A stretch of DNA of 63,729 nucleotides, filler included, from Reclinomonas americana ATCC 50394 (Eukaryota), in the NCBI GenBank assembly GCA_048213135.1. It is 4 parts of 3 records of this genome, joined end to end, with 100 filler letters (N's around TTAATTAATTAA, not from the genome) between each part and the next. Parts side by side here need not be neighbours in the genome. Positions count along the whole stretch, not along the records: positions 19,886 to 47,719 come from PS015643.1; positions 47,820 to 57,777 come from PS015644.1; 2 more parts are not named here. The stretch is one strand, 5' to 3'. Positions 10,101-56,364 of this stretch are shown here, one piece after another; the first letter of the stretch is position 1, and each line of letters starts with the position of its first letter. The notes under the pieces are model-generated. The model was given only the letters and a program-made list of their open reading frames with translations. It had not been told where the DNA came from and did not search any database. A program made the position numbers and the translations under genes.

Positions 10101-10206
10101 GTGTTTGGCGACCAGTGTGCACCGCTCCTCGTGATCATGTACAACCTCGCCATTCGTGTCCGTGGAGGCGGCACCAGCGCCGCCGACGCCGAGCGGCGGT
10201 TCCAAA
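7101..10206 (+). CDS. TPR array (~24 x 42 aa, kinesin-light-chain-like) of NLR1; contig placed in inverted orientation
   Basis: Uninterrupted ORF with consensus AEAERLYREVLALRREVLGDRHPDTLxSMxxLAxC and 23 HP-type linkers. The start (T)AT CAC GCA CGA joins flush and in frame to the minus-strand end at 10952. Confidence 0.9.
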
Positions 10207-13900: not shown

Positions 13901-14426
13901 GAGTTGGACGAGGGGAAGGAGGAGGAGGAGAGAAGGAATCCCGCGACCTCTCACCAGCCTCGCACTCCAGCAGTCGCTCGGCGAGTCGCTCGGCCTCTGC
14001 GACACGGCTGGGGAACGGGAAACCATCCAGCTGGCCCACGTTTTTGAACACAACTGCCTCATTCATAACATTGGCGGCTCGCATAGAGTTAGCTCTGTTG
14101 ACAGACAGCAGGAGATGAGTGAGCGCTCGCACGAGCATACATGCATGCATATGCACACACAAACACACACACACACACACGCACAAGCACACGCACAAGC
14201 ACACTCGAAAGCATGCAGATGCACACAAAGGAAACGCTCACACACACACTCTCTCACATACACTCTCTCTGTCTCTTTCTCTCTCTCTCACACACACACA
14301 CTCACTCACTCACTCACTCACTTACTCACACACACACACTCACTCTCTCTCTCTCTCACAGAGAGAGATGTTGACACATACACTCGACATGGAGGCACGC
14401 AACTCTTCATCGGCGATGAGCGACAT
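10952..14426 (-). CDS. NLR1: STAND/NB-ARC-like P-loop NTPase, N-terminal part (no effector domain)
   Basis: ATG at 14426 (MSLIADEELRAS). Walker A GEGGSGKT at 12840-12817, Walker B VLLLDNV, sensor-1 LVIVTTR, and a YGVHD (MHD-like) motif. Collinear with the paralog at 43983-47719. Confidence 0.85.
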
Positions 14427-19571: not shown

Positions 19572-19829
19572 TTGGAGGGAAAGGGAGAGAGAGGGAAGGG
19601 AAATGAAGGTGCAATCGTGATGCAATGGGGGGAAGGGAGAAGAGGAGAGGGAGAAGATAAGGCGGGAGGGATGGTGGCTATTGCGCCTTGGGTTGGCACT
19701 GTGTCACGACAAACACTCCATGTGCACCTACCGTTGTGCCTTGCCTTCCCCTCCTCCTCCTCCTCCTCCTCTCTCTCTCTCTCTCNNNNNNNNNNNNNNN
19801 NNNNNNNNNNNNNNNNNNNNNNNNNNNNN

Positions 19830-31574: not shown

Positions 31575-31624
<50 letters not shown>

Positions 31625-34359: not shown

Positions 34360-37300
34360 TCACAACACTGTGCACGCACACGAAGCCGGCGGAGCAGTCG
34401 CCGCACCACCCGCCGCCGGAGCCGGCAGCGGGCGACTGCTCTTCACCTGTTGCTGTTGCTGCTGCTGCTGCTGCCGCTTCTCCACCACCACCGGCACATC
34501 CGACAACTCGTCGTCAGCAGTCGCTGCATCATCGTCGCGAGCGGCCGCCAACTGTGTGGACTCCGACGACGACGCGCCTTCCGAGGCACTAGCTTCGTCG
34601 GCCAGTTCGACTCGTGCCTTTGGCGCCTCAACGGGAGCAGAAGGGTGCTCTGGAGGAGCAGCAGCTTGCGCATGCTCAACCGGTGCCGCCGGCGCACCAT
34701 CCACCACTGCCGCCGGCTGCCGCTCGGGCATGGCAGCGAGAATCGACAGAGGCAACGGCATGGTAGTTGGTCGATGATGTCGCTTCCAGTTCTGCGTCGA
34801 CACCAATCAGCGAATGCAACAGTGACGAGCAAGAAATAATCGTGCAAACCTCCACTGTGCGATTCACACGCTCTTGCCACCCGGCCTCCGCTGGATTGAT
34901 GGTCTTCATCGGTCGCGGATGCAAGCGCTGTGTATTGCGAGCAACAAGTGAGGGGAGAGTGATGCAAGAGGAAGGAATCGCAACGACATGCGCACCGTCG
35001 GAACCATCTCCACCAGGAATGCGGGCACCCAGCAATCCTTTTCCGCCTCCTATACTCGTATGAATGAGAAGCTGCACGAGAACCAATGTCACAGACTGGT
35101 AACGCACAACAGCAGCCAGTGCATCCGGTGTTTCGATGAGCTCGCCATCGCGGAAGAAGCACTTGTTTCGATCAGTGGGAATGCCAATCATCTACGCGTC
35201 AAGCATGTGGGCGCACAGGAGAGGAAGTGACTCTCCACTTCACACCAACCTGACAGGCATGCCCACTCCCGGTGAAAAGTCGAATCGGGCACTGCAGGAT
35301 CGTGTCCCACAGCGTGCGGCGCTGCTTGGCCTCCTTAAAGGCGGCCACGAAATCCGCCTGGCCGATCTGTGGGTGTTGCTTGCTTCAGTCTATGGATGAC
35401 GCTCCTGACTCACACACACACACACACACACGAGATACCTTGCCGTCACCGTCGACATCGTACCGCCGCACCAGATCGTCCAGCTGTTCGTCGACCAGGT
35501 CGCGCGCAACGTCGTACTCGGCGCGCAGCCACGCCGCGAACCTGGCTTTGCTCAGCGAGCCTTCCTCGTCTGCAATAAAGGGGAAGGCATTGAGATGTCG
35601 AGAAAGAGAAGGGCAAGAAATAAAGTAAGCACAGGTTGGAGTGAAGAGAGTGAGAGCGGCTGGCGTGATTCTAACTCTTCTGACACATGACTGAACAATG
35701 GATGGTGCATTCAAACAGTGCCACTCTCTTACTTTCTCTCATCCTGCAACGAATGAGGACGAAGACGATGTCGATTCGCAGTCGTACTCTCTTCTCTCTC
35801 TCTGCTGATCGTGCGTCAGTGAAATGCATGCCAATTTTGAAGGCAGCTGCGTCGACGCTGGTTGCAAGCTATTGATTGCCATCCCAAGCATGCTTACCTC
35901 TGCGCTCTCTCTCAGACACTCAAAAACTCTCATTCTTTGCTGGACATTCTTTTCCCTGATTTCGCTCTTCTTGTGCCATCGGCAAGCGCTCGCGTGCAGT
36001 CTCTCTCGTCTCTCTCCCTCTCCTCTCTCACTCCCCTCTCTCTCAAGCACACACCCTCCATCTTTCGCACTCTCTCAACAAACTTTGCTGTATCACCGAA
36101 AAGAACTTGCACCTCTTTTCTTCTCCCTCTCGTCTCTCTACACACAGCTGTGAAGTGTCACTGAAGGCACCTGCAGCTCATTTCTTCTCCCTCTCGTCAT
36201 TCTCTCTCTCTCTCTCACACAGAGGCACGCAATCTCTCATCATATGTCGTACCACGATTCTCTCTCATTGAGCTATGCTGTGTCACAGTGAAAAGGGCTT
36301 GGAGCTCATTTCTTCTCCCTTTCGTGATTCTCTCTCTCAGATACACACCTTCTCATTATGTCGCACAATACGCCCTCTCAACGAGCTATTCTGTGCCACT
36401 GATAAGGGCTTGCAACTCTTTTCTACTGCTCTCTCGTCTTTCTCTCTCTCTCTCTCTCTCTCTCAGACTCGCATCTGCACAATTTGTCGTATCTCATTGA
36501 GCTATGCTATGTCGTTGAAGGGTTTCTTCTCCATTCTTCTCTCGCAGACACACTCACTTTCTCATTCTTTCGTACACTCTTCTTCCTCATCGAGCTGTGG
36601 AAACTCTCTCCCTCTCCCTCTCCCTCTCCCTCCCTCTCCCTCCCCTCTCCCTCCCGCCCCCCTTCCTCTCACCCACCTTCATCATATCGATTGAACATCT
36701 GCTTCGCCTCCTTCTCAATCACCGCATCACTCCACCGCTCCGGGAACAGCTGACATCCCCACGCTCAATGAGGACCATCACCGCACAACAACAATGACGC
36801 TATTAATCAGCCTCACCTCCGCCGCATCGGCCAGTCGCAGCGGTGCGCCCAAGTGTGAATTCCAAAAGCCAAAGTACTGGTCGTACGGATAGTTGCCGAG
36901 TTGAATCCACTGATCGGTGTTTGGCGACGCTGTGGCAGGGTCGATCGACTGGCAGGCCTCTGCTGGCATCCACCTGCGGCGATGCAGCAGTTAGGAAAGG
37001 CTACTTTGCAATAACTGTAGGAGAGAAAAACACAGACGCACCCAATGCCCTCGGCCCAGATCATGGCGCTGACATGTGGTCCCAGGTGGTAGAGACCGGT
37101 GGACTCGTCGACCAAATTGTAGCCGTTGCCCCACCGAGTGCTGCACGGAATGCCTGCCATGCGCACCGCGTACATGAAGAATGTGTTGAAGGAGCCGCAC
37201 TGGCCGTATCCTGTTCGATCGGGAATGAGTCGCTGCACTCACAAGGTGGTGCCACGGGAAATCGACGACGCACCAAGAATGAATGGCGCCAGCACGCCTG

Positions 37301-40300
37301 ACTTGTAGTAGTCCGGGTTGGCCCACTCGCGAATGTTGTCGTACACGGTAGTGTTGCGGATGAGGCGGATGACTCGGTAGGCGTACACCACGTCGCGTTC
37401 GCCGGGCAGGCGGAGGCATTGCTTTTCCTCGAGGAACTGTTGTAAGAGAAGAGATGGTTAGTAAATGACTGTCTCCGACACAATAAACGACGTCCTGTGC
37501 CAAAAGTATGCTGATTGCCTCTCGACTGATTTCTATCTCCCGTGGTGTAATAATCTTTCTCCTGGGCACTCAACAGGGTTGCACTTTTTCTTTTTGATTC
37601 TCTCTCTAATATTGCATGCACTGTTGGTCCCCCTGCTGGATTGATTCTCTGTTTAACTCTCGAGTCATTCTTTCCTGTCGCTGCGTCTCCTCTGTCTTCT
37701 CAATTCCCAGGCAAATGTTATCTCACCTTCTTCCTTGCACCGTGTTCCTCAACTCACGCTTAGTCTCACTTCCCCTCATTTCTCGTGTCTCCTCCTTCGC
37801 ACGTGCCTTCATGGCTCCTCCTCATTTCTCCATCTCCCTTTCTCATTCTTACTTCTGCTTCCCGAGCATCACCTCCTCCTTTTTCTTCCTCCCTTACTCC
37901 TTTCCCCTTCTCAATACTCACATCTCACGTTCTCCTTAGTCCTTCTACTTCACACTTTCTCATTCTCCTTCTCTTCTCCTTCTACCTCGTCCTTCCCCTG
38001 CTCTATTCCTGTTCACTTCGCGCATTCCCCTTCTCCTTTAAGCTTCTCTTCTGCTTCTCCCTTTCGTCTCCCCTTTCTCGTTGCCCTTTCCTTTCTCCCG
38101 ACTTCTTCTCCTTGCCTTCTCCCATCGTCCCTTTCCCCTTTCCTCCTTTCGTCTCCTCCTTCTTCTTCTTCTCCGCTTCTTTGTCACTTTTTCATTTCAC
38201 GTTCTCCTGAATCCTTCTTCTGCACACTTTCTTCTTCGTCCTCCTGCTTCTTCTTGTTGCTTCTTCCTTTCTTCTTCTCTTTCTCTCCTTTTTTCATCTT
38301 CTCTTTTTCTTCTTTCTCTTCTCCTTCTTCTTCTCCCGTCCCTTCCCAATTCCCTTCTCTCTTCTCCTTCTCTCTTCTCCTTCTCCCTCCCCCTGCAACT
38401 TCCTCCTGCTCCCTTTCTTCTCCTCTTTCTCCCCCTTCCCTCATCTCCTTCCCCCCGTCGCTCACCTTCCGCATTCTCGGGAACGTCAGCGTGTCATCCC
38501 GCGTGTAAAACTCACGCTCCTCCTCCGACAATGGCGGCACGTGCGGCGCCTCCTCACCAGGCTCCAGAGGCTCCAGCCAGACACTGTTGTTTTGCATCTC
38601 GCTGACGATCTTGATGCCGAGCAAATCATCCACCGCCGTCTCCAGCACATCCTGTCCGCGCATCTGGCGCACGCGCAGCTCCTCGCCCGTGGACAGTCGG
38701 AACACGCGGTGATTGGTCCGCAGCGACAGGTGCGAGCCGAAGCTGTGGCACTGCGCGACAAAGGAGTGAGTTGGCTGGCAAGAAGAAAATGAGTACTTTG
38801 CATGATGGAGACAGACCAGGCGAGTGAGGATCAGCTGGAAGCCCGTGTTGTCGATCCCGGCACGGTCGCGGCCGGTGTCGAGTCGGCGGCGGACAATGGT
38901 GGTGGTGCAGCAGATCTCGCCTGGCTGGCGTCGCAGGACGAGTGGTTTGTTGCCCCAGTACTGGATGAAGAAGGGGTGATTAGCGAGATGCACAGAGAGA
39001 GAGAGAGGGAGGGAGAGAATAAGAGAAGGGGACGGAGAGAGAGGATGAGAGAGAGAAACAGAGAGGGAGGGACGGAGGGAGAGAGAAGGGAGAGAGGGAG
39101 AGAGAAGGGAGAGAGAGAGAAGAGAGACGAGAGTGGGAGAGAGGAGAGAAGAGAAGAGAGGGAGAGAGAACGAGAGAGAGAGAGAGAAGAGAGAGACGAC
39201 GGAGGAAGGGAGAGAGAGTAGAGAGAGAGAGAGGGGGGAGCAAAGAGCAGACGGAAAACAAGGAATGTGGAATTGGTGATTGTCGCGCTCGATCTGTCTC
39301 GCTCTTCTTGTTCTCACCCTGCTCCCTGTATCCTTGAAACTTTTCTGGTTTCTGGCTCTCCTCCGTACCCTCTTATCTCTCTCCCTCTCGCTCTCCTTGC
39401 TACCAACTCCGAGTGTCAGCAAAGCCATTCTGTCCAAATATTCACAACCCCAGATCATCTTCTGTCGGAAAAATATACTGGGCGACACTTGCTCCGGCGA
39501 TTTGCGATGGCTCCTCGCCCAGCGCATAATGCACAGCGCATGGAGCAGCAACTCGTGGTGTGTCTGCGCTTCTCACTCACTTCTCTCCACTTCCCCTCGC
39601 TCCTCCCTGTCATCGTGGTACCTCTGGAGAAAGGGAGGGAAAGAGAAAGAGAGGGAAAAAAGAGTGTGAGAGAGAGAGTTGGAAGGGAACACGGCTGAAA
39701 GACGGCAGATATGAAACAATGTACGTGAAGAAATATTTGTGTGGATGAAAAACACGCACAATGAGACTGAGAATGGGCGGTACTCGCCCAGCGCATGGTG
39801 CAGCAACTTGCTTCGCGCCTATGCTTCTCTCTCAGTGGTCCCCTCTTTCTTCTCCCTCTTTCAACATCGCACCTCCCACCTCGCCCAGCGCATCGTGCAG
39901 CAACTCTCTCGCGCGCCTGTCCTTCTCAGCCACTCATCGCTCTCCCTCATGCTCCTCTCTCGCTCTCCATCTTTCATCATTGCATCTCTGGAGTAGCGGC
40001 CCACCTCATCGTGCACCAACTCTCTCGTGTGCCTGTCCTTCTCACCCACTCATCGCTCTCCCCCATGCTCCTCTCTCGCTCTCCATCATTCATCATTGCA
40101 TCTCTGGAGTAGCGGCCCACCTCATCGTGCACCAACTCTCTCGCGCGCCTGTCCTTCTCACGCACTCATCGCTCTCCCCCATGCTCCTCTCTCGCTCTCC
40201 ATCTTTCATCATAGCATCTCTGGAGTAGCGGCAGGGCACCCTCCTCGCCCACCTCATCGTGCACCAACTCGCTTTGCGCCTGCGCTTCTCACTCGCCCAT

Positions 40301-43300
40301 CCCCTCCCCATCCCTCATCACCGCACCTCTGGAGTCGGCGGCAGTGGCGTCGAAAACATGTACGGCGCCTCGGCACCAAACTCGCCACTGATTCGGCCTC
40401 GCTTGTCGATGCACCACTGTCGCTGATCGGAGAACACGCTCGGCTGTCGGGCGCGCACCACGTGCATCTCCACCATCTGTGACGAATGAAGCAGGTTTAT
40501 GGCGGAGGGCTATGATGCACAGCAAAAGTGACTGCCACAAACCAGCTTGTTGAGTGCATTGTCGGGGTGCAGCAGTGGGCGAATCGACAACACTCGGAAC
40601 CCGCGCTCCTCCTGCATGTCCGGCGACGACAGGTGCTGCACCTTGAGAGGTAGCATGGCCTCGGTGCACATGTCGCGCAAAAAGTCCTCTAGTTTGGACA
40701 CGGGTACTTGTTGGTAGCCGCAGTACATGCGCGTCAGAGTCTGTGCGGCTGGGGTCAGGAATATGGAAATGTGATAGCTCATGTGTGCGTGGTATTCGTG
40801 GTGCAGAGAGTCGAGTGTGGAAAGACGGGAGCTGATTACGTTGCTTCTCACCTCTAGCAAGTGCTGCCACGACGGCACCTGCCGCAACATTGAGTCCGGC
40901 ATCACTCCCGGGCACCACGTGTCGGGATCGACTCTGTTAACAGAGTGAGCAGAGAAAAGTAAAAGGTGATAAGGCGGGCATCGCAACTTGGGCACCACGC
41001 TTTTCGACAGATCCACCCATCCTGGCAGATCCTCTGCGCCGAAGATGCCGAGGACAAGCAGCGGTTGCTCCTCGTCGACGACGGAGTTGAAGTAGTAGAG
41101 CGTGTGGCCCATGTGTGCGTCGAATTTGCTGCGTCGCTCGATGCGCATCATCTGGGTGGGTGGGGGGGTGGGGAAGGGAAAGGGAAGGGAGGAGGAAGGG
41201 GGGAAGAGAGGGGGAACAGAGGGGGAAGGGAACGTGGAAGAGACGGGTTTAGGAGGCGAGAAATGGGAGAACAGGTAACTGAGTTCTCTTCGAGTTGTCT
41301 GTAGGCACGTGCAATTCTGCATCCCTGGCAAGTGTGCAACGAATCATCGCGAGACCTCCTTCTTCTCCTACATCTTCTTGTTCTTGTTCTTTTCTCCTCC
41401 TTGTTTTTGTTCTCCTAGTTCTTCTTCACCTCTTCCCCGCCCTGTTCTTACTTTTCTTGTTCTTGGTTCTTATTCATAATCTTGTTCTTCTTCTTCTTCT
41501 TGTTCTTGTTCTTCTTCTTCTTCTTCTAGTACTTCTTTTTGTTCTTCTTCTTCTTCTTTTTCTTCTTCTTCTTCTTCTTCTTCTTCTTCTTCTTTTCCCT
41601 CATTGTTGTTCTTACTCCTCTTGTCCTTCTTCTTCTCTTGCCCCTGTTCTTCTTCTCCTGCTTCTCCTCCTGCTCTTCCTCCACCCCCTTTCCTTCGTCT
41701 TCTTGCTCTTGTTCTTGTTCTTGCTCTTCTTCTTCGTCGTCGTCGTCGTCCTCTTCTTCATTTTCTCCTGCTCCGTCTCCTCTTTCTTCTCCTCCTTGTC
41801 TTCTTCTTCTTCTTCTCCTTCCTCTCCTTCTTGTTATGGCAGCTGTCGGCGACAAGATCATGCAACGCTCACTTTCTGTCGCTCAATCTGTTTGCCTATG
41901 TGTGCAACACACAGGCACTAGTTCCCTAACAAACACCAGATTAAAGACATTAGTTCCTCATTCTCTTTCTTCGCGCTTCTCTCCTTCCTGATGCGGTCTG
42001 TCTGTCTTGTGTTCCGACAATCCAGCGAAATACAAAAGCTGTCATTGAGTCCAAGAGACTTGGCAGACTACAACGCAAGAACGAGTCCCTCTCCCTCACT
42101 TTCTCCTCCTTCTCTCTCTCTCTCNNNNNNNNNNNNNNNNNNNNNNNNNNNNNNNNNNNNNNNNNNNNNNNNNNNNNNNNNNNNNNNNNNNNNNNNNNNN
42201 NNNNNNNNNNNNNNNNNNNNNNNNNNNNNNNNNNNNNNNNNNNNNNNNNNNNNNNNNNNNNNNNNNNNNNNNNNNNNNNNNNNNNNNNNNNNNNNNNNNN
42301 NNNNNNNNNNNNNNNNNNNNNNNNNNNNNNNNNNNNNNNNNNNNNNNNNNNNNNNNNNNNNNNNNNNNNNNNNNNNNNNNNNNNNNNNNNNNNNNNNNNN
42401 NNNNNNNNNNNNNNNNNNNNNNNNNNNNNNNNNNNNNNNNNNNNNNNNNNNNNNNNNNNNNNNNNNNNNNNNNNNNNNNNNNNNNNNNNNNNNNNNNNNN
42501 NNNNNNNNNNNNNNNNNNNNNNNNNNNNNNNNNNNNNNNNNNNNNNNNNNNNNNNNNNNNNNNNNNNNNNNNNNNNNNNNNNNNNNNNNNNNNNNNNNNN
42601 NNNNNNNNNNNNNNNNNNNNNNNNNNNNNNNNNNNNNNNNNNNNNNNNNNNNNNNNNNNNNNNNNNNNNNNNNNNNNNNNNNNNNNNNNNNNNNNNNNNN
42701 NNNNNNNNNNNNNNNNNNNNNNNNNNNNNNNNNNNNNNNNNNNNNNNNNNNNNNNNNNNNNNNNNNNNNNNNNNNNNNNNNNNNNNNNNNNNNNNNNNNN
42801 NNNNNNNNNNNNNNNNNNNNNNNNNNNNNNNNNNNNNNNNNNNNNNNNNNNNNNNNNNNNNNNNNNNNNNNNNNNNNNNNNNNNNNNNNNNNNNNNNNNN
42901 NNNNNNNNNNNNNNNNNNNNNNNNNNNNNNNNNNNNNNNNNNNNNNNNNNNNNNNNNNNNNNNNNNNNNNNNNNNNNNNNNNNNNNNNNNNNNNNNNNNN
43001 NNNNNNNNNNNNNNNNNNNNNNNNNNNNNNNNNNNNNNNNNNNNNNNNNNNNNNNCACTCACTCACTCACTCACTCACTCACTCACTCACTCGACTCACT
43101 CACTCGCTCACTCACTCGCTCACTCACTCGCTCACTCTCTCTCGCACACACTACTCTCTCTCTCCACTCACTCTCTCTCTCTCTCCTTCCTCCTTCCCTC
43201 CCTCCCTTCCTCCCTCCCGCCCTCCTGACTCACTCACCACTCACACTCACTCACTCACTCACTCACTCACTCACTCACTCACTCACTCACTCACTCTCTT

Positions 43301-43593
43301 TGCCCTTTCCCCTCTCTCTCCACGCAACATTGCTGAACTCCGTGGGCCACCCCGTATACCTCTCGCAAATCGCATACAAGCGGTCCTTGTGCGCACCATT
43401 CAGTGCCGCCAACATGCGATCAATGCGCTGCGCACGAGAACAACAAGGCACGCGTTTTTACTCAACATTTCCGACCATCAAGTATGTGTATTTGTGTATA
43501 TGAGCGACTCACTTGCACACAGCGACGCCAGTGCGGTGTCATGAGTGCGTCGGGGATGTCGGTGCCTGCGGGCAGAGACGCGAGGGTGCTCAT
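34360..43593 (-). CDS. Transglutaminase-like + EF-hand pair + CaaX protein, paralog A
   Basis: ATG at 43593 (MSTLASLPAG). Core GYGQCGSF (Cys 37199-37197)..GIP...HVSAMIWAEGIG|WMPAE. Exon ..QMFNRYDE spliced in phase 1 to DEEGSLSKARF (EF1), then DVDGDGK|IGQADF (EF2). Ends SCACTVL*. One gap inside. Confidence 0.75.
36150..36560. repeat. Degenerate ~115-bp tandem repeat in an intron of paralog A
   Basis: ctcattgagctatgct..aagggctt..ctc recurs at ~36263, 36377 and 36493. Confidence 0.65.
39780..40275. repeat. ~116-bp tandem repeat containing copies of a micro-exon and its splice sites
   Basis: ccacctcatcgtgcaccaactc..cctgtccttctca..tctggagtagcgg is repeated 3-4 times. Confidence 0.85.
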
Positions 43594-43982
43594 TGTTGTT
43601 TTTCTTTTCTCGTGTTTTGCGTGAAAACGGGCGAGGGGACAATGTAATGCATTTTCTGTTGGCAAAGGGGAGTTGTTGGGTGGTTGGCGATGAGGAGAAG
43701 GGGATGCAACAAAAGGAGTGGTGAGTCAAGAAGCAGTCTATGCGCTGGTGAAGGTGGCTCGGATTTCCCTCGACGTCTGTCTGTCCGACGTCGACTCGAG
43801 GGCATCGTCTCGCTGTCGTGGTGCAAGGTTGACTCGTGGGTTGGGATTATAGTTGCAAGAGGAGCGAGTGCGCTTTTGCTGTGAGGAAGTGAGCGATCAT
43901 GAAGTTGCAGGACCGATTCATCGCATTTCTCCGTCCGCAAAGAAAGTGCGCGCAAACGCACTCTGCATCTCACCCTGCATCC

Positions 43983-46900
43983 ATGTCGCATATCAGCGAT
44001 GAAGAGTTGCGTGCTTCCATGTCGAATGTGCGCCTCTGTTGTGCGCACGCTTGCTTACGTGTGCGTGCGCTGGTGTGTGTGTGTGAGAGAGAGAGCAGTT
44101 TCCTTCGTATGCATGTGCACTATGTGCGTCATTTTTTCGAGTGTGCATGCTTGCGAGTGCTCACTTGCTTGTTCATCTTGTTTGCTCGTGTGAATGCATG
44201 CGTGCGTATACTTGGATTCGCTTGCGTGTACACTCACTCGTCTCCCTCGCCGGCTTCGCAGGTCGAACTACATTCGAGCCACCAAGGTTGTGAGTGGTGT
44301 CGCCGCGCGCGCACTGCGTGCGCTCGTGCAGCAAGAGCTGCCCGCATTCGTTCGCCACTGTGCGGCAGAAACTGAGGCATCGGCAGCGGGGAAATTGGAG
44401 TTGATGAAGGAATGGATGAAGAAGCCTGGCAGACGAGATAAACGGTGAGAGTTCTTCTCCGCATGATTGTGTCTCGATGTGCCTCTTTGTCTCTCTGTAC
44501 TCCTGCCAGTTTTCCACTTCTATCCTTCTCTTGGTTTGTCTGTGTGCATGTGTGCGTGTGCGTGCTCATCAACGTGCGTTGTTGTACAGCGCCGCACTGC
44601 AAGGGTTGCAACAAGTCCTTTGTTTCGATTCGGCGGCCGCGGCCATGGAGGACTGGCAACGTGCGCTGGACGCCGGCGAGCCTGCTCCCTCGTGCAGCTC
44701 CTTCGACATCTCATGGCTGACCTCGGTGTTGCTGAACGCATACTGGACGCCTGAAGCGAGTGCTGCTCCTCCGCTCGATGTGCGCCAGCTGATCTTCGAC
44801 CCATTGCAGGTGCGGAGTGTTTCTTTCCTGGGTCGCCTCTGTTCATTCCTCACGTGTCGTGCAATGCAGCGCGATGCGGTTCAACAACTACGTGAAGTGC
44901 GGAATGGCTTCATGCATCTTCCTGACCCGCGACTGTCAGCCGCACAATCGCGCGAACTTCTTGGTGACAACATCATAGAAGGGCGAGTAGTGCATCTGCT
45001 GCGGCAAGCGCGTGTCCCGCTCGAAGAAGCGTTTGTGAAAGAGATTAATGCAATTCGCTTCGGTGCGTTGCATGTGTGTCCATGAGAGTCTTGGTGATAT
45101 CGGCACTCAACGTCGTTTGTGTTGAGCTGCAGGTGTGACACCGGCGAAGCGTGCAATCGTATATAGAAACATGGGCCATCTACATGGTTTGCCATTCCCC
45201 AGTCGTACCGCGAATGCTGAGCGACTCGCGGAGCGATTGCTTGAGTGCGATTCTGGTGAGTTAACGTGCGTCTGCTTCATCACTTCATTGTTGTGGCTCA
45301 CATGTGTTTTTGTTGGATTATCCCCCAAGGAGACACATTGGGAGTGCTCGTTCTCTCTGGCGAGGGAGGGAGTGGAAAGACGACACTGGCCCAGCTGATT
45401 GTGTCGGAGATGGAGCGCAAAAAGTGGCGTGGTTCGGCCCTGTTCGCGGACATGCATGGTCTCACAGCCGATGCGAGCCGATACACATCGGTGAGTGCAC
45501 ACGTTTAGTTGTTGACGAGTGAATATTGTCTCATATCTATCTCTCTCCCCCTCTCGCTCTCCCCCTCGCTCTCCCCCCCCCTCCTCTCTCTCCCAGACGA
45601 CGGAGGTGCTCAGCGGCGGGCTGCGTGGATTCGCCAGCACCACGACATCCGTGCAATCCAGTTCACAGCTGTTGGCCGAGATCGAGGCGTGGAAGGAAAA
45701 CGGCAACATAGACATGCTGCGCAGTCGACTTGGCCACTTCATGAAGGACAGTCGCGGTATTCTGCTGCTCGACAACGTTGGCACAGGGAGTCAAGTGTTG
45801 GATGTATTGCGAGGCACGGGCGTATTGCACGCTGACTCAGGTGCGTGGCATCCTGATTGGGGTGCACATTGACCAGTGATTCGAGCAATAGCGCACGCAC
45901 ACAAAGCAAAAGCAGTGGGTAGGCACGGCGCTCAGATTGTTTCTATCGCTGGGTGAGATGGAGAGAGCATGAGAGAGAGAGAGAGAAAGAGAGACAGCAC
46001 ATGCAGGGTGATTATTGGATCTGAGGCAGATTTTATCACTTCTTCCTTCGGAGGTGGCTTCTACTCTTCGTGCGTGCAGTTGCACATCTATCCACATGAA
46101 CGTTCGATACAGACGATAAATTAACTTGGATGTATTTGTCTCGTTTCAGATTCCCCGCTGATGGCCGCCCCACTGGTGATTGTGACCACGCGGTTCAAGC
46201 GGGTGGCCGATGAACTGCAGCGCTCAGTATTTTTGAGCACGGGAGTGGTGCTCCACATGTCGGTGGGCGATTTGGAAGCCGACGATGTGGCGCAGTGTGT
46301 GCGACAGCAGATTGATGCGCCAGAAGAGATTTGCCGTGAATTGACGGCAGCGACGGTGGAGAAACCGCAGGCATTCCGCGTGGCTCTCTGCTTGAGGTTT
46401 GTCGATTGTTCATTTGTTGCACTCTCGGTGTTTCTGAGGAAGAATTGCTGCAGCATGCTCGCCCAACAGTCACTGGAGACCTTGACGAGCAGCGCGTTGG
46501 CGGCATGTCTGGCCGAGACGCGAGCACGGGCAATTGATGGGCTGATGAACAGAAACCTGGCAGAGTGCACGCCGTTGACGCGACAGGTGCTCTTGTTAGT
46601 CTCGGCGTTGCAGCAAATGCGAGTGCATGCGACGGCTCGCACTGTGGCGTTGTTGGTTCGGTTGATGCGGCGTGATGCTCCAATAACCGATGCTTGGCTG
46701 CAAGACCTTGTGGTCCGAGACGGAGTGGAGGAGTACCGTGACGGTGAAGGCGATGTGGTGGAGGCGCTGGAGTTGCTTCGGCGCTCCATGTTGGTACAGT
46801 CCACGTTGGTGGAATCGTGCGACGCGTTGTATCAAATGGTGGTGACTGGTGGAGAAGTGCTGCCGTCGAGGGTGGAATATGGAGTGCACGACATCGTGAT

Positions 46901-47719
46901 GGAGTGGTTGACTACAGGAGAACGTGAGAGGGAGCTGTGTCTGTATCGTGATGCTGTGAGGGATGTTGTCCTGTTTGGACTGGCACGTGCTGACGAGTAT
47001 AGCATCAACGATGACGTGCTGTGCGATATTCGACTGTGTCTGCGAGTGATGTGGAACGACCTACTGTCTGTAGTACAGCCTCGGTGGAACGGAAGTTGCA
47101 TCTCGCCTGCTGTTGCAAAGATGCGATTCGATGGCGTTTCGCGCTTGGCGCAGTTGGTCGAGGATCGCCTTCCCGTCCACGATTTTAGAGGCGATGTGGC
47201 GGTGGCGAGTGCGACGTGGATTCGTGAACAGAGCGGTGACGGAGTGGATCGCGGCGATTATCACAAACGAGCGCGGTGCGCGGGAGGATTATTGATGAGC
47301 GCACGCCGTGCTGGTGATGCCGCGGACTATCTGGAAGGCCATCTGAAGACTGTCGAAGCTGGCGATGATGTGATGCTGGTCGCTGACCTGCGGCACGTAC
47401 TTGCGACTTGTCTGCGGGACGTGGGCCGTCTTGCCGAAGCCGAGCGACAGTATCGGGAGGTGCTTGGTTCGAGGCGTGAGGTGCTTGGTGACCGACATCC
47501 TGATACACTGACATCAATGGTCGGTGTCGCCAGGTGCATGTACGCCACCGGCAATCTTGTCGAAGCCGAGCGACTGGTTCGCAAGGTGCTGGAGTTAAGG
47601 CGAGAGGTGCTTGGTGATAAACACCCGGGTACGCTATGGTCCATGAGCGCTGTCGCCGCCTGCATCGCAGCCGGTGGCAACCTTGTCGAAGCTGAACGAC
47701 TGCATCGTGAGGTGTTGGC
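43983..47719 (+). CDS. NLR2: HEPN (DZIP3/Swt1-like) + STAND NTPase + TPR
   Basis: Phase-consistent exons: NYIRATKVV..ALRAL; SFDISWLTSVLLN; LREVRNGFMH (RxxxxH at 44900-44917); Walker A GEGGSGKT at 45359-45382; ILLLDNV; LVIVTTR; YGVHD; TPRs from ~47400. Confidence 0.85.
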
Positions 47720-47819
47720 NNNNNNNNNNNNNNNNNNNNNNNNNNNNNNNNNNNNNNNNNNNNTTAATTAATTAANNNNNNNNNNNNNNNNNNNNNNNNN
47801 NNNNNNNNNNNNNNNNNNN

Positions 47820-47845
47820 CGTCGTGTGCGTGTAGTGTGTTGTGA
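47820..47845 (+). CDS. Last codons (TSCACSVL*) of transglutaminase-like paralog B, on an inverted contig
   Basis: A|CG TCG TGT GCG TGT AGT GTG TTG TGA joins flush to the minus-strand end at 48554 and matches paralog A's SCACTVL*. Confidence 0.75.
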
Positions 47846-47907
47846 AGAGCAGGCGAAGTGAAGCCTGGAGGAACACAGCAGTCGATTGCAATTCCAGAAG
47901 TGATTGT

Positions 47908-48533
47908 TTATGATATCACACAAGCACATCTCTGCGAGTCTCTTCGATTCCCCTCTATTTCGCGAATTCGCGCTTCCACCAGTTGTGTGTCAGAGTGCGC
48001 GTCACCAAGTACCTCCCGTCTCAACATCAACACCTCCCGATACAGTCGCTCGGCTCCGGCAAGGTCGCCACTGGCCTGGATGCAATCGGCTAAGCTGTAC
48101 ATTGACCATAGAGTGCTTGGGTGCCTATTACCAAGCACCTCTCGCCTCAAAGTCAACACCTCACGATACAGTCGCTCGGCTTCAACGAGATTGCCACTTG
48201 CTTGGACACAGTAGGCAAGATAATACGTCGACTCAAGCGTATTTGGATGCCGGTCACCGAGCATATCACGTCTCAATGTCAATATCTCGCGATACAGGTC
48301 CGCAGCTTCCACAAATTTGCCGCTTGCACGAATGCATTCAGCAAGACTGCTCGTACACACGAGCGTGTCTGCATGCCTGTTACCAAGCACCTCACGCCTC
48401 ACAGCTAACACTTCACGAAACAGTTGCTCAGCTTCGGCGAGATTGTCGCTTTTGCGAATGCAGCTGGCGAGATTGGTCATCGAATTCAACGTGTCTGCAT
48501 GCCTGTCACCAAGCACCTCACGCCTCAACGCCA
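47908..48533 (-). CDS. C-terminal TPRs (~5) of NLR2 ending in CACVIS*, on an inverted contig
   Basis: Same 42-aa repeat. The contig end TGGC overlaps the ..TTGGC end at 47719 in frame. Stop TAA at 47908-47910. Confidence 0.8.
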
Positions 48534-48553
48534 NNNNNNNNNNNNNNNNNNNN

Positions 48554-51403
48554 TCTGCGCCTGCCCACTCGCCCCCCCACGCACACTCGCCGCCCCACCC
48601 GGCCTCACTACCTTCCCCACCTCCGACACCGCCGACGCATCATCCGCCGTCGCCACCGTCGCCGACACCTGCTGCTGCGACGAGCACGACGAGGAGCCCG
48701 TGGCCTCCCCCTCGTCACCTTGCTCCTCTGCCTCCTCACCACGAGTAATCCGTGACTTGGCTGGTGGCACACTCGCCACAGCCAGTGGCGCAGGCCGCAC
48801 CAGCACTGCCGCGCGCACCGTCTCCGGCATGAGCGGGCTCTGCTGCCTGACGGTCCGCTGCCACACCTGGCGGTTGTTGCGCAGTGAGTCACCTTGACAT
48901 ATCTCTTTCACTGCTGTGACACGAACCGCCACGGTACGATCCACTCGCTCCCGCCACCCTTCAGTCGCTGGACTGACGGTATATGTCGGCTGTGACACGA
49001 TCTGCACGAGCCAAAGAGTGAGTTTCCTTGATGCCGTGAGGCACACTTTCACAGTCGCCCACCTGCAGTGTCACTTCCGCGAGAAACACTGGCCACCACT
49101 TGCCCTTCACAGACTCCTGCACACACTCACATCAGCGAGGCAGCCACCACCACTATCACCCGCGATAGGAGAGAGAGAGAGGCACACACCTTGGCCGCAC
49201 GAGTCTCATCGGTCTCAATCAGCTGTCCGTCACGGAAGTGGAACACGTTGTCTTTCTGCGGCACGCCACAAGTCTGCAGTCGCCGCCAGTGAGACATCAG
49301 CAATCCGCGTGTTGATACTCCGCCTTGCGCATACAAACCTGGCAGCCGATGCCATTCTTGGTGTAGATCCGCACTGGTTCCATGCACAGCAAGTCCCACC
49401 CGACCTTGCGCCTCTTGGACTCGCGATAAGCTGCCACAAAGTCGGACTCCCCAATCTGCAGACACACATTTACCAAGTGAGTTGTAGCGCAGTGAAACAG
49501 TGGCACTCAGCACACACCTCTCCATCGCCATCCAGATCGTACCGTCGAACGAGATCGTCCAGCTGACTGTCAATGTGCTCCCTCTTCTGCTCGTACTCGG
49601 CGCGCAGCCACGCAGAGAACTTGGCCTTGCTCAGCTTGCCGGTCTCGTCTGTTGCATATGAGCGAGAAGGTGGTGAGCCGTATCTTCACAGTGCTTCCAT
49701 ATCCAGTCGAAGACAAGACAGGAAAGAGAAAGAGAGGGAGAGAGAGAGAGAGAGTTGGAGACCATAAAAAGCTATGTTGTGGTAACACGCTTTTTAGGCA
49801 GAAGATACTGCACGGAAGGGATCGGCTCAAGATGAACGATGATTGGAAGAAGGGTCTCGTTTGTTTAGTGAGCAACGTGAACTGCATTCAGAGACACCAT
49901 TTCCAAAAGCTCTTTTGCGTCTCTACGTAATTCTTCTTCCTCCATGGCCAGTTGATTGAGCAAAGGGAAACATCTCACTTGTCATTTTCCTTTCCAGTAT
50001 TCTCTGCCTCAACTCCAGTTTGTCTCATCAGAATGATACTCAGCATGCAAAGTCCTCTTCGCCTTATCTCTCTTCCAAGTCACCAGTCACACGAGATGCA
50101 CACACTCGCATCATGTGCAACCGGTCCACCCTCATTTCTCTCCTTGCTCCCTCCATTCTTCCTTCCCCTCCTCATCCCCTCTCACCGCACCATCATCAAA
50201 CTTCTTCATCCTCGTTCCTCTCCTTTCCCTCTTGCAACGTTTCCCTCCTTTCCTCCTTTTCCTCTTTCTCCTCTCATCGCCTCCTCCTCTCCCTCTCCTC
50301 CTCCTCCTCCTTTCCCCCCTGTCTCTCTCCTTTCCCTCCCCATCCCATCCTCATCCTCTGCACCACACCTTCATCACACTGCCCGAACTTCTCCACCCTC
50401 CTCTCCCCCTTCACCTGTCATTCCAAATCCCCTTCCTCTCTCTCTCCTTTCCTTCCCCCCCCTGTCTCTCTCCTTTCCCTCCCCATCCCCTCCTCATCCT
50501 CTGCACCACACCTACATCATACTGCCGGAACTTCTCCACCCTCCTTTCCTCCTTCACCTGTCCCTCCAAATCCCTTTCCTCTCTCTCTCCTTTCCCTTCT
50601 CCCCCCTTCCCTCCTCATTCCCACCTCATCCCCTCCTTCCCCTCCCCCACACCTTCATCATACTGCCGGAACTTCTCCACCGCCTCCCGATTCTGCACCG
50701 CGTCACTCAGCCGGTCGGGAAACAGCTGCATCACCCACAATCAGCCACCGTGCCCCCCACTCTCAAGATTCGTCATTCGTCCTCACCTCGCCCGCATCAC
50801 GCAGTCGCCTGAGCAGCCCAAACCCGTAGTGCTCGAATCCGTAGTACCGCTGATCGGGAGCTGCACCGACATTGATCCACTGGTCGGTCCGTGCCGAGGC
50901 TGCTTTGGGGTCGTCGATTGGTTGGCAGGCTTCTGCGGCCATCCACCTGATAATAGAAAAGCGGTAAGCCCCACAACGAGGAGGAAGGGAGGCACAGGCG
51001 ACAACGAGAGAACTAGGAGTGAAGCGCAGCAAGAAGAATATAGGAGTGAAGAGGATTGTGGAGAAGGATAAGTGAAGAAGACGTAAGAAGGACAAGCGGA
51101 ATAAGCCGAGAGCAACGACAATCAATATCCACACAACAACACTGCAGCAGCAGCAGCAACAACAACAACAACATCGACAAGAGAACAAACAAGAAGAAGG
51201 AGGAGGAGGATCAGAAGAATACAACATCCAAAACAACAACACCACCAAGAACAACAACAACGCCAAGAAGAACCGCAACATGGAGACGAGGGAGGAGGAG
51301 GACGTGAACAAGACCAAGGTACAGATCACAGAAAAGAGGCGAAGTAAGTCGAGAAGAAGAAGAAAGTGGAGACCAAGGAGGAGGCCAAGCAAGAATGAAT
51401 AGC

Positions 51404-51435
<32 letters not shown>

Positions 51436-54400
51436 GAACAACAACAACAACAGCAACAACAACAACAACAGCGACTGGAAGAACACAAAAAGGAGGACAA
51501 AGAAAGCGGAAGAGAAGAAAAGCAGGAGCACTGACCGCTGATGATTCTATGCATTATCTCTAGCATCTTGTATGTCCGTCTGTTATCCCCTCTCCTTCTC
51601 ATTCTTCTTTTCCTTTCTCCTCTTCTTGTTTTCTCTTCTATTCCTCTCTCTCTCTCTCCCTCTCCTCCTATTTCTTCTTCCTCCCCAGCCGCTACCCTCC
51701 TTTCAATTCACCAACTCTTCTCTCTTCCTTCCCTCCTCCCTCTCCTCCCTCTCCTCACTCTCCTCACTCTCCTCACTCTCCTCCTCCTCTCCTTCCCCAC
51801 TTACCCAATACCCTCCGCCCATATCGCCGCCGAAATATGACTACCAAATCGCCACCGCTTGCCCCCATCGCCCTCCGTGTACTCCTCAAAACTCTGGCCC
51901 CATCGCGTAATACTCGGAATGCCCGCCAGTCGCATCGCATACATCATGAATGGATTGAAGGAGCCGCACTGGCCGTACCCTGCAACGCGAAAGAGGTGAT
52001 GAGGAGGAGGGGGGAAGCTGAGGAAGAGGAGGAGGAAGAGGAGAAGAAGAAGAAGAACAAGAACGCGAACAACAACAAGAACAACAACAACAACAACAAG
52101 AACAACAACAACAACAACAACAACAAAAACAACAACAAAAACAACAACAACAACAAGAAGAAGTTAGAACAAGAACAAGAACAAGAACAAGAAAGAGAAG
52201 AAGAGGAGGAGGAGAAGGAGAACAAGAAGAAGAAGAAAAGGAAGAAATAGAACAACAACAACAACAACAAGAAGAATAAAAAAGAAGAAAAGAAGAAGAA
52301 GAGGGAGGAGGAGGTGGTGGAGGAGGAAGAGGAGGAGGAGAAGAAGAAGAAAAGGAAGACGAAGAACAAAAAAAGAAGAAGATGATGAAGAACAACAACA
52401 ACAACAACAACAAGAAGAAGAAGAAGACAGAGGAGGAGATTAAGAAGAAGGGGAGGAGGAAGAGGAGGCGGAGAAGGAGGAGGAGGAGAAGAATGGAGAG
52501 GAGAACAAGAGAGAGGAGGAGGAGACGAAGAAGGAAGGGGAGGAGGAAGAGGAGGAGGAGAAGAAGAGGGAAGAAGAAGAACTAGAACAATAAGAACAAC
52601 AACAACAACAAGAAGAAGAAGAACAAGAGGAAGAGGAGGAGAGGGAGGAAGAGGAAAGGAGAGAGAGGACGAGGAGGAGGGGGAAGAAGAGATGGAGAGA
52701 AAGAGGAGGAGGAGGAGGAAGAACATTCCCGTGACACACTTCCTGTATAACAACACGCACCAAGCACCACAGGCGCCGTCGCTCCCAACTCCGTGTACAA
52801 TTCTCGATTGGCATCCTCCTGCACCCCATCGTACACGGTCGAATTGCGCACCAGACGAATCACGCGGTACGCGTACGACACGTCACGCTCGCCAGGTCGA
52901 CGCAAGCAGTTGCGCTCCTCCAGCACCTGGGTGTAGAGAGAGAGAGAGTGAGGTCGGGTGCAGAGTAGCACGGTCGACAATCATCGTCACCTTGCGCATT
53001 CTCGGAAAGATGAAAACGTCGTCGCGCAAGTAAAACTCGCGCTCCTCGGCCGACAGCGGCGGCACATGCGGCGCCTGCTCCCCCGGCTTCAGCGGCTCCA
53101 ACCACACCTCGTTGTTCTGCACCTCCGACACGACCTTGATGCCGACAGGGTCGTCGACAAACGCCTCCAGCGCGTCAAAACCACTCATGTGTCGCACCGG
53201 CAGCTCCTCGCCCGTCGACATCCGGAATGCGCGATGGGACGACGAGTGCGACAGGTGCGAATCGTAGCCGTAGCACTGCGCATGGTGAGAGGACGGTCGT
53301 CGTCATTAAGGGAGCAGGTGGGTCACACATCTCACCAGTCGCGTCATGAGAATCTGGAACGACGAGTCGTCCAGGCCGCCGCGCGGGCCACCCGCGTCGA
53401 GGCGCTGGTGGAAAATGGTGGTGACGGAGAAGCGCTCGCCGGGGCGGTGGCGGAGGACCATTGGTTCGTTGCCCCAGTACTGCAAAAAGGGGGAGAGAAG
53501 GGAAAGGGGGGAGGAGAGTGAATAAGGAGAAGAGAAGGGAAGCATGGCACAGACTAAAGGAAAGGGAGAGAGAGAGAGAGAGAGAAAGGAAGGAGAAGAG
53601 AAGGGATATGATGGCATGAGAGAGGCAAAGAGAATGAGGAGAAGAAGGGAAGAGAAAGGATGGCAATATTTGACGAAAGAGAAAAGGCGAGAGGGGGGAC
53701 AAAAGTGAGTGGGAATAAGAAGAGAAGGGAAGAGAAGACGGAAATCAACAGAAGAAAAGAGAAAGGTGAGGAGAGAGGAAACGAGAATGGAAAACATGGC
53801 ATAAAAACTGATGGAAAAGGAGAAGGATAACCGACAGCGGGACAAGAAGTGAAGAAGGAGAAGGGAAGGGAAGAGAAGATGAATTCAACTGGTGAAAGGA
53901 GATGAAGGATGGTTCGAGAGAGAGGAAGGGAGCAGACAAGGGTAGAAAGGGAGAAGGGTGAGAGAGAGGCAAGAGTGAGGAAGGAGAAGAGAAGGCATGA
54001 AGAAATGGAAAGGGAGAAAGATGAGAGTGAAGAAAAGAGTGTGTGGAAAGAGACGATGAAATCAGGTGGACGGAGGCGGAGAGTGAGAGAGAAACGAGTT
54101 AGAATTTCAAAAGTGGGCGAGTAGTGAGTGAAGCACAAGTACTCCTCTCATAATCTTGTTTGTTTCTCCAGCACCTCACACAGAAGGAAGAAACAGAACG
54201 AACAACGACACCAAGGAAGGACGTTTTCTGTTCGTTTTCTTATCTCTGACCACTTTGATCAGAGAACAAGGAGAATGACTCACAGATGTTTTCCCAGGTA
54301 CTAATCAACGGGCAATGGAGGTAGAAAAACAGAGGTGTAAAAGGATGGAGCGCTGATAGAGAAGATGTATTAGATTCTCTTGCTCTCTCTTGCTCTCTCT

Positions 54401-56364
54401 CCATACTGAATCTCATCATCAAGTCTTCGATTGCACCAGGAGGAACGACAAAGAAAAGAAACAACCACCTCACCCTCTCGCGCCTTCGTCTCTCCCTTCC
54501 GTCTTCCCTTCTCCAATTTCTCACCCTTCGCCCTTTGCCCTTTCTCCCCCTTCCCCCTTCCCCCTCCCCCTTCCCCCACTATTTCCCCCTTTGCCTTCCC
54601 CCCCCCATCTCCCTCCCCCTTCTCCCCCTTTCCCCCCTCCCGCTCACCTCCTCCACCGGCGGCAACTGCGAGTACCACTCATACGGCTCATCCCCCTGCC
54701 ACTCGCCACCAATCTTCCCCTCCTTGTTCACATAGATGGCCCGCTGGTGAACACGCATGCACGCCTTGAGCTTGCCAGGGAGCACAAGGTGCATCTCCAA
54801 ATTCTGCACGCAAAGTGAGCTCCCTGCTGTCACCCACCCCGTTCCCACCCCCAACGCACCAACTTCGACAGCGAGTTCTTCGGGTGCAGCAGCGGCCGAA
54901 TGGCCACCACCCGGTAACCCTCGTCGCGCATCTCCGCCGACGAAAAGTGGTCGAGCTTCTCCTGCAGAATCTCGTCCGAGTAGATCTCGCGCAAAAAGTC
55001 GCGCAGCTCCGACAACGGCACCTCGAGGTGGCCGCAGTATGCGCGGGTGATGCGCTGCGCCAAGTGGTGAGGAAATGCGTGAAAAGTGAGACTCTTGCGT
55101 CACAGACGTGCCTCCATAATGTACTGCCACGATGGCACTTGCCGGAACATGTCGTCCGGCATCACACCGGGTGTCCACGTCGCCGGGTCGACTCTACGGC
55201 AAGGTGAATCTCAACAGCGGGGTCTTTCACACTTTCAACAACAGGAAGGCGCAACTGAGGCACAACCCGCTCTCCAATGTCGACCCAATCCTCCAACGCG
55301 GGATCCTCCGCCCCAAACATACCGCAAATGAGCAGCGGCTGATCCTCGTCGGCCTGCGGCTCGAACTGGTATCGCGTGTGCACCATGTGGGCGTGGAACA
55401 TGGCCTGTCGTTCGACTCGCATGACCTGGACGAGGAGGTGAGAAGGGGAAGGAGTGGAAGAGAGGGGAAGGAGGGGAAGGAGGGGAAGGAGGGAGAAGGA
55501 GGGGAAGGAGGGAGAAGGAGGNNNNNNNNNNNNNNNNNNNNNNNNNNNNNNNNNNNNNNNNNNNNNNNNNNNNNNNNNNNNNNNNNGAGAGAGAGAGAGA
55601 GACGGAAGAAGGAAGGTAAGGAGGGCACTGTCGAAGGCATACGACAGTGACAAAGTGAGATATCAAAGACTCAATCAGCAACATAGGGGAGAGAGAGAGA
55701 GAAAGAGAGAGATAGAGAGAGAGAGAGGCGGGGGCAGGTCAGGAGGGCACTGAGAGAGGAGTGACAAGATCGGAGAGACAGAGTGAGATTTCAAAGAACT
55801 CAATCAGCAACAAAGGAGAGAAAGAGAAGAGAGAGAAGAGAGAGTGTGCGTGAGAGAGAGAAGGGGGCAGGCCAGGAGGGCACTGAACGAGAGAGAGGGG
55901 GAGAGAGAGAAAGACAAAGACCGAGATATCGAAGACAACTGACCAGCACATTCTCCGCATTCTTCGCGCACACCACTGGAGTCACCCGAATGCTCTCCCA
56001 CTTCTCCGCATGCTCCGATCCATCCTTCGGCTTGAAACACTGTCACAAACATAACAATAAACAAAAAGAAGAAAAAACACTCTTCACAAGAGATATTATT
56101 ATTAATCATCGCAACATCAAAGAAACCCTGCGCCCATGACGTGTACCGCTGATACACCGCAAGCATCTGACTCACGTGGATGCCATTGAGTGCCTGCAAC
56201 ATGCGCTCAACACGCTGCACACAGACACACAGAGAGAGACTGGTGAGAAAGAGAGACATAAGAACAAGTTAGTGAGTGCTTGCCTTGACATAGCGCGTCC
56301 ACTGTGGTGTCATCAGTGAGTCGGGTATGTCGGCGCCTGTTGGGAGAGAGGCGAGAGTCGACAT
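48554..56364 (-). CDS. Transglutaminase-like + EF-hand pair + CaaX protein, paralog B
   Basis: ATG at 56364 (MSTLASLPTG). GYGQCGSF (Cys 51968-51966)..GIP..HISAAIWAEGIG|WMAAE; KFRQYDE|DETGKLSKAKF; DLDGDGE|IGESDF. Exon order is the same as in paralog A. Confidence 0.75.
50310..50690. repeat. ~143-bp tandem repeat duplicating an exon 3' end plus donor (3 copies)
   Basis: cacct(t/a)catca(t/c)actgcc(g/c)gaacttctccacc at ~50366, 50509 and 50650. Confidence 0.8.
51100..52730. repeat. (AAC)n/(AAG)n/(GAG)n microsatellite-filled introns of paralog B
   Basis: Directly visible; they flank the catalytic exon at ~51805-51979. Confidence 0.9.

Follow-up and report, generated by a model that had tools for sequence, protein, structure and literature searches.

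The locus studied here raises the question of whether three neighbouring genes with matching C-terminal tails form one working system at a membrane or merely lie side by side. It spans positions 34360 to 56364 of the window, by which we mean the whole stretch of 63,729 nucleotides that was analysed (Reclinomonas americana ATCC 50394, assembly GCA_048213135.1; all positions count along the window). The gene NLR2, which codes for an NLR-like protein, lies between two paralogous genes for transglutaminase-like (TG-like) proteins, paralog A and paralog B, and all three products end in CAC-aaX, i.e. a CaaX box with a further Cys two residues upstream. An earlier note on this DNA took the layout and the tails as signs of a guard/guardee or a sensor/executor system. 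Our results do not bear this out: the tails of A and B represent one event, the spacing is matched by control genes, the sister gene NLR1 is not linked to TG-like genes and the final residues (X) of the tails differ. We consider it probable, though by a modest measure, that NLR2 is a lipid-anchored member of an NLR family located between two membrane-tethered enzyme genes and is not their partner. A working partnership is a less likely cause of the cluster than a membrane address common to the proteins together with a receptor family that is mobile.

Gene models and assembly

All gene models were put together manually, based on six-frame translations and on splice signals. The window belongs to a draft assembly of an intron-rich eukaryote and contains 17 runs of N as well as stop-linker joins. 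The three-gene locus and the sister gene consist of the following parts:

34360..43593, minus strand: paralog A; 18 visible exons, ~918 amino acids (aa); orphan N-terminal region, transglutaminase-like core, EF-hand pair, low-complexity tether, end SCACTVL-stop
48554..56364, minus strand: paralog B; 19 exons, 893 aa including the tail piece; architecture and intron positions as in A
47820..47845, plus strand: final 26 bases of paralog B, on a reversed contig; end SCACSVL-stop
43983..47719, plus strand: NLR2, 5' part; 9 exons; probable HEPN, NB-ARC-like NTPase, helical domains, first TPRs
47908..48533, minus strand: NLR2, 3' part, on the reversed contig; TPR repeats and end RCACVIS-stop; TPR_12 E 4e-40
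43594..43982, no strand: divergent intergenic region between A and NLR2, 389 base pairs (bp)
10952..14426, minus strand: NLR1, 5' part; sister of NLR2, 71% identical; without HEPN exons; no TG neighbour
7102..10206, plus strand: NLR1, TPR array; ~21 repeats, on a reversed contig

The models of A, B and NLR2 contain no internal stop. AG acceptors were present at all junctions (A 17/17, B 18/18, NLR2 8/8), and all donors are GT save two GC donors in B, which belong to the introns at 56284 and 55112. Four further introns of A and B (at 43329, 40988, 56116 and 55256) start with GTTGCG and follow an exon that does not end in G. Exon 3 of paralog A, which measures 96 nucleotides (nt) in B, was probably lost in the N gap at 42125-43055; a search for a match to the B exon near A returned none.

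The start codons are located at 43593 (minus strand) for A, at 43983 (plus strand) for NLR2 and at 56364 (minus strand) for B, and 389 bases separate those of A and NLR2. The contig at 47820-48533 (714 bp) is reversed in the draft. Three of the ten offsets that we tried for the NLR2 join stay in frame, and removal of a 4-base overlap results in the exact TPR repeat register. The join of paralog B is in frame at three of seven offsets, and a zero-base join aligns its tail with the register of A; the assignment of this tail uses just 26 bases across the gap together with the homology to A. After the correction the stops of NLR2 and B are 62 bases apart. We thus confirmed the layout given in the earlier note: the two start codons of the head-to-head pair were located as described, the tail-to-tail arrangement of NLR2 and B follows from the in-frame, in-register rejoin, and the three C-termini were recovered at the spliced gene ends.

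NLR1 shows the same fault, with 7102-10206 reversed and a 5' join that is in frame with no base added. The TPR tails of both NLRs are hence located on small reversed contigs (7102-10206 and 47820-48533). This suggests a systematic scaffolding fault that will break the annotation of NLRs in this assembly. In a draft that has many gaps and in which small contigs are reversed, collapsed repeats are also conceivable, and the 714-bp contig could in principle stem from another NLR or TG copy, in which case tails or adjacency would be misassigned. We regard such an artefact as very improbable: the contig rejoins in frame and in register at both of its ends, and the tail of A as well as the head-to-head layout of A and NLR2 lie outside it.

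C-terminal tails

The tail of paralog A is encoded at the very end of the gene:

34360..34383, minus strand: Cys-Ala-Cys-Thr-Val-Leu-stop; CaaL with a Cys two residues upstream

The tail of NLR2 (RCACVIS, ending at 47908 on the minus strand) is CaaS with a Cys two residues upstream and the tail of paralog B is SCACSVL (ending at 47845 on the plus strand). In order to judge how special the motif is, we counted it at the 2036 six-frame stops in the window that are preceded by an open hexapeptide. CAC-aaX occurred at three of them, and these are the three gene ends (CaaX: 9; CxCxxx: 15). The codon string TGYGCNTGY is over-represented in this repeat-rich window (56 seen compared to 8.5 expected from base composition, 6.6-fold). 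As the motif is confined to the three gene ends among all stops, it is real there despite this enrichment.

All three boxes (CTVL, CVIS and CSVL) fit the CaaX rule, with Cys fourth from the C-terminus, an aliphatic a2 and a permissive X. A second Cys exactly two residues upstream is also a feature of H-Ras and R-Ras. The low-complexity tether preceding the tail is 35% identical between A and B, while the tail itself is identical at 6 of 8 residues; on this comparison lipid anchoring, as proposed in the earlier note, appears to be a sound assumption. X = Ser predicts farnesylation and X = Leu the other transferase (PMC10940682, read together with the usual rule); A and B would accordingly be geranylgeranylated and NLR2 farnesylated, i.e. 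the predicted prenyl groups differ. In Ras-type tails a CaaX box plus a nearby Cys forms a two-lipid address, with which proteins of this type reach the membrane by a prenyl and a palmitoyl group (PMC10940682); here the same address is found on an NLR-like protein and on an enzyme. Prenyl plus palmitoyl is a general membrane address.

The tails of A and B were inherited from one ancestor (synonymous divergence dS 1.11), and there are therefore two independent tails and not three. Of the description as unrelated proteins with the same double-Cys anchor, the exact C-A-C spacing stands; the count is reduced to two lineages, and X is L, S and L. We also considered that NLR2 captured its tail from A by gene conversion, or from the flank of B. 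This was rejected, as the final 40 codons of A and of NLR2 show no DNA homology: shuffled sequences reached the score of the real comparison in 67 of 300 cases.

Divergence of the two gene families

Paralogs A and B are 57% identical over their folded part and have intron positions in common. Their dS is 1.11 (95% interval 0.95-1.32) with a nonsynonymous divergence (dN) of 0.36 and thus dN/dS ~0.32, and the catalytic motifs are intact. The two genes thus go back to an old tandem duplication and are kept under purifying selection, the tail included.

The NLR pair served as a control. NLR1 lies ~20 kb from A in the window, and no TG-like sequence was seen near it. For NLR1 and NLR2 we calculated a dS of 0.43 (0.35-0.53), which does not overlap the range for A and B. 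The HEPN exons are gone from NLR1 in frame, leaving an effector-less form. The homology upstream of the two NLR genes ends ~85 bp before the ATG (blastn, 43900-44029 vs 14492-14380), and the similarity to the NLR1 upstream region within the A/NLR2 intergenic region is confined to the ~85 bp beside NLR2. The later-split sister of NLR2 thus moved elsewhere with its own short leader alone. As dS is lower for the NLRs than for A and B and NLR1 has no TG neighbour, NLR units move independently of TG genes, and this took place later than the split of A and B.

NLR1 as a whole covers 6400-14426. Downstream of its gap, one of three frames reads KPDCIIL followed by TGG instead of a stop (near 6650). 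This is possibly a decayed CaaX box; a zero-base join would end without CaaX instead.

The same data bear on the guard or decoy explanation, in which the TPRs of NLR2 would bind A and/or B at the shared membrane and the HEPN RNase would fire when the enzyme is cleaved, inhibited or displaced by an invader. Linkage would keep matching alleles together in the style of Prf within the Pto cluster. The NLR gene has a paralogous enzyme gene on either side and the C-A-C spacing is identical, both of which speak for guarding, and guard/guardee pairs with lipid anchors are known in RPS5/PBS1 and RPS2/RIN4 (PMC3801107). However, A and B look conserved and not fast-diversifying, as their dN/dS and catalytic motifs illustrate, the predicted prenyl groups differ between A/B and NLR2, the sister NLR1 is unlinked to TG genes, and a second TG/NLR instance was not found in searches that were weak. 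We consider guarding unlikely, though none of our results contradicts it. The same low expectation applies to the wider proposal that this protist independently built a Prf/Pto-like cluster, in which a C-terminally prenylated HEPN-NB-ARC-TPR receptor watches two calcium-regulated TG-like enzymes and destroys RNA on tampering by an invader.

Several points weigh against our reading of NLR2 as a neighbour. NLR2 persists in a tight space between the paralogs (62 bp and 389 bp), and tomato Prf has its gene within the PTO locus and binds Pto and Fen (PMC5091034). The dS values are silent on which NLR copy is the original and may be lowered by gene conversion or rate differences; the HEPN-less NLR1 may be a derived copy that departed from an older module. 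None of 120 TPR-type database hits, mostly bacterial, ends in Cxxx, so that such a tail is unusual for these repeat proteins elsewhere. C-A-C tails on both neighbours would be expected just 0.02-0.1 times per genome and CaaX-CaaX neighbours 0.4-2.4 times, according to a sketch with guessed inputs and before allowing for the post hoc picking of the pattern. With NLR2 as a neighbour, the matching tails would have arisen by convergence on an ordinary prenyl-plus-palmitoyl address and the neighbourhood would have come about as members of a large NLR family were copied and moved.

Layout, spacing and upstream regions

Since A and B are in tandem and NLR2 is inverted between them, it must face one of them head-to-head and the other tail-to-tail. 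The layout is hence a single 50:50 fact. For comparison we used unrelated genes in the window and measured a head-to-head distance of 470 bp and a tail-to-tail distance of 201 bp. The head-to-head control is a WD40 / 4-TM pair: a WD40-like gene with an acidic C-terminal part (15091-17014, minus strand) and the first of two small membrane genes. The earlier note also pointed to co-regulated NLR pairs, for which it gave a head-to-head layout as typical. The comparison does not hold: RPS4/RRS1 is a head-to-head pair of two NLRs (PMC3801107), A is not an NLR, with neither an NTPase nor a repeat domain in its gene model or in the Pfam scan, and the control pair shows that the spacing is ordinary.

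The upstream region of paralog B is separate and lies behind an unrelated gene, and the DNA upstream of A and B shows weak or no similarity (the score was reached by 5 of 200 shuffles). A duplication of an A+NLR unit into a B+NLR unit was rejected, as there is no NLR remnant upstream of B.

A bidirectional promoter between A and NLR2 could account for the cluster by co-regulation without interaction: both genes would be induced jointly, e.g. by membrane damage or by infection with calcium influx, and the products would act separately at the same membrane. The divergent spacing of 389 bp, the membrane tails on both products and the one canonical EF loop in A and B are consistent with this. The comparable spacing of the control pair and the upstream region of B, which is little like that of A, argue against it, and we give joint induction a small chance.

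The NLR2 protein

NLR2 is ~1098 aa long if the join is direct, and contains a 57-nt intron, in frame, at 46397-46453. Two of its domains were delimited on the plus strand:

44590..45062, plus strand: probable HEPN RNase domain; REVRNGFMH (R-x4-H)
45330..46396, plus strand: P-loop NTPase; Walker A GEGGSGKT, Walker B LLLDN, sensor IVTTR

The head is probably a HEPN RNase domain, judging by its motif and its similarities. The match to DUF4559/CXorf38 is weak (E 0.29) and falls on the R-x4-H motif. In the Atlas the region scored 0.91-0.93 to clusters in which 11-20% of the members carry DUF4559, HEPN_DZIP3 or HEPN_Swt1, with a recognition score below threshold. The fold model of the head had a pLDDT (predicted local distance difference test) of 40 and was unusable. 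For the NTPase the Pfam matches to NB-ARC, NACHT and nSTAND3 were weak. With a profile of 17 NB-ARC-TPR proteins from fungi and bacteria, the stretch from Walker A to sensor-1 reached 22.7 bits, compared to 4.2 for the best of 50 shuffles. Past sensor-1 the profile match stops; a GVHD motif can be seen by eye, and the helical and winged-helix domains have no Pfam match. TPR_10 and TPR_12 are above the Pfam cut-off and the joined protein contains 7 repeat markers. Pfam returned no LRR match in NLR2; with TPRs instead, it is NLR-like only and not an NLR in the strict sense. The probable HEPN, NB-ARC-like and TPR calls made earlier for NLR2 agree with the R-x4-H motif, the profile score and the TPR_12 match. 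Among 384 candidate relatives in metagenomes one passed, a chance match of 24 residues.

Fungal NB-ARC-TPR NLR-like proteins (Dyrka et al. 2014, PMC4986451) resemble NLR2 in the NB-ARC-like core, TPR_10/12, the exchangeable N-terminal domain and the variable number of repeats (NLR2 7 vs NLR1 ~21). Unlike these, NLR2 has a HEPN-like head and a C-terminal CaaX box; 'prenyl' occurs 0 times in the main text of PMC4986451. Database hits match NLR2 through its TPRs alone, mostly at ~25% query coverage. Swt1-like HEPN domains are fused to a STAND ATPase and TPRs in bacteria, and in cnidarians and cephalochordates CXorf38 HEPN domains are joined to NACHT (Anantharaman et al. 2013, PMC3710099); for background on NACHT proteins only, see bioRxiv 2022.07.19.500537. 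HEPN-STAND-TPR proteins of the Swt1/CXorf38/DZIP3 type share the R-x4-H motif with NLR2. They differ in that the NLR2 gene is intron-rich and eukaryotic, has a lipid-anchor tail and has a HEPN call below curated thresholds.

Every step past gene structure, motifs and divergence, here and for A and B below, is one that we infer. NLR2 would carry a farnesyl group on the Cys of its CaaS box and a palmitoyl group on the Cys two residues upstream, holding the TPR end at the membrane. A ligand on the TPR array would lead to nucleotide exchange and oligomerisation of the NB-ARC-like core, and the oligomer would bring the HEPN heads together, so that RNA is cut and the cell arrests or dies.

The presence of a probable effector head also bears on the sensor/executor explanation, in which activated NLR2 would turn on the TG-like enzymes as downstream executors. 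STAND-linked conflict systems of bacteria do contain TG-like peptidase domains with an effector or regulatory role (PMC8195603). Nevertheless this explanation fits worst, because NLR2 has that head of its own. Moreover, A and B have their own EF-hand input, no shared adaptor domain was seen, and the HEPN-less NLR1, which would be more in need of an executor, has none beside it. We believe that there is hardly any chance of it being correct.

The tomato Prf/Pto cluster likewise has an NLR gene among paralogous enzyme genes (PMC5091034). It differs in that binding and guarding are proven there, the enzymes are kinases and the sensor is an LRR. In RPS5/PBS1 and RPS2/RIN4 the receptor and a second protein are both lipid-anchored, as predicted here, though RPS5 and RPS2 use N-terminal acylation and not a C-terminal CaaX box (PMC3801107).

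Paralogs A and B

Two domains of paralog A were delimited on the minus strand:

36817..37436, minus strand: TG-like core; Cys in GYGQCGSF, His in GPHVSA, Glu in GWMPAEA
35250..35569, minus strand: EF-hand pair; EF-hand_7 E 0.0023; second loop canonical, first loop with Arg at position 12

The core exon of A matched PF01841 with E 3.3e-4 and 21.3 bits, just below the cut-off of 23; the single core exon of B was also below the cut-off (E 0.035). When the spliced core was aligned to a bacterial PF01841 family with hhalign we obtained a probability of 95% and E 2.9e-8 over 76 columns, covering the lead-in helices and the catalytic Cys helix; the family was picked by its similar motif and the alignment is not fully independent. 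His and Glu are kept in both paralogs at the expected spacing; they were placed by motif position, outside the hhalign alignment. Glu is an accepted third residue of the triad (PMC3495828). The near-threshold PF01841 match and the hhalign result bear out the TG-like call of the earlier note for A and B.

The bacterial family with the GYGQC motif is small and widespread (496 of 518 candidates confirmed), and Glu is likely its third triad residue. Its two annotated plasmid copies adjoin metal-transport genes.

All searches for TG homologs used exon-sized queries, which makes absence a weak result. No homolog was found with B exon 9 (52 candidates) or with the N-terminal open reading frame of A (372 candidates). 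A HMMER scan of 1.84 billion proteins with a TG exon profile returned 2 matches, both judged to be spurious repeats. There was no usable TG homolog in the Atlas and none in the PDB. Pattern scans yielded 0 of 142 metagenome, 0 of 32 prokaryote and 0 of 55 viral candidates, and the TG exons had no match in NCBIfam or PADLOC.

Ciliary TGL proteins of the PF01841 superfamily (CCDC135, CEP76 and CC2D2A; PMC3495828) are similar to A and B in having a Cys helix followed by His and an acidic residue (C/S, H, E/D triad) and in being membrane-proximal. Unlike them, A and B have an EF-hand pair and a CaaX tether and not C2 or TM anchors. We would expect A and B to be geranylgeranylated and palmitoylated, on a flexible membrane tether of 100-140 aa. 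They may be calcium-regulated papain-fold enzymes with a Cys-His-Glu triad (peptidase, deamidase or cross-linker) that act on cortical or ciliary proteins, a job that would be separate from that of NLR2.

Other features of the window

Two tandem intronless genes (17485-17871 and 19176-19571) code for small hydrophobic multi-pass membrane proteins of ~130 aa that end in KKR and KKA, which is ER-retrieval-like. From reading translations, the gene at ~25340-32586 (minus strand) codes for a large secreted-looking protein with NHL-like repeats and cadherin-like and IPT-like domains. The product of the gene at ~58000-60663 (minus strand) is also secreted-looking; in it, lectin-like cysteine domains surround a long Ala/Lys/Asp coiled coil and a helical segment rich in cysteine. 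Going by their translations, we take 20456-~22300 (minus strand) to be a Nicalin-like gene and 56759-~57980 (minus strand) to be an MCM7-like gene. The sequences at 19590-19785 and 19886-20065, on either side of a linker gap, are the same, i.e. overlapping contig ends that were left unmerged.

Implications

The chassis of HEPN, NB-ARC and TPR is known; the C-terminal two-Cys anchor on an NLR-like protein and the TG-like/EF-hand/CaaX family appear to be the new parts. Among the titles and abstract openings of open-licence papers we found neither an NLR-like protein with a C-terminal prenyl-plus-palmitoyl signal nor a TG-like/EF-hand/CaaX family. A and B appear to form a eukaryotic orphan family of enzymes with a TG-like core, EF-hands and a CaaX box. 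This family and the anchor on an NLR-like protein are both worth recording even without a partnership. If guarding were true, the locus would be a genetically linked guard/guardee system beyond plants and fungi, with a new class of guardee and a C-terminal anchor; it would offer a direct approach to the question of what NLR-like receptors of protists detect and would mean that guard logic re-evolved in a distant lineage. With NLR2 as a neighbour of the two enzyme genes, the prenyl-plus-palmitoyl signal at the C-terminus of an NLR-like protein would place its TPR sensor at the membrane.

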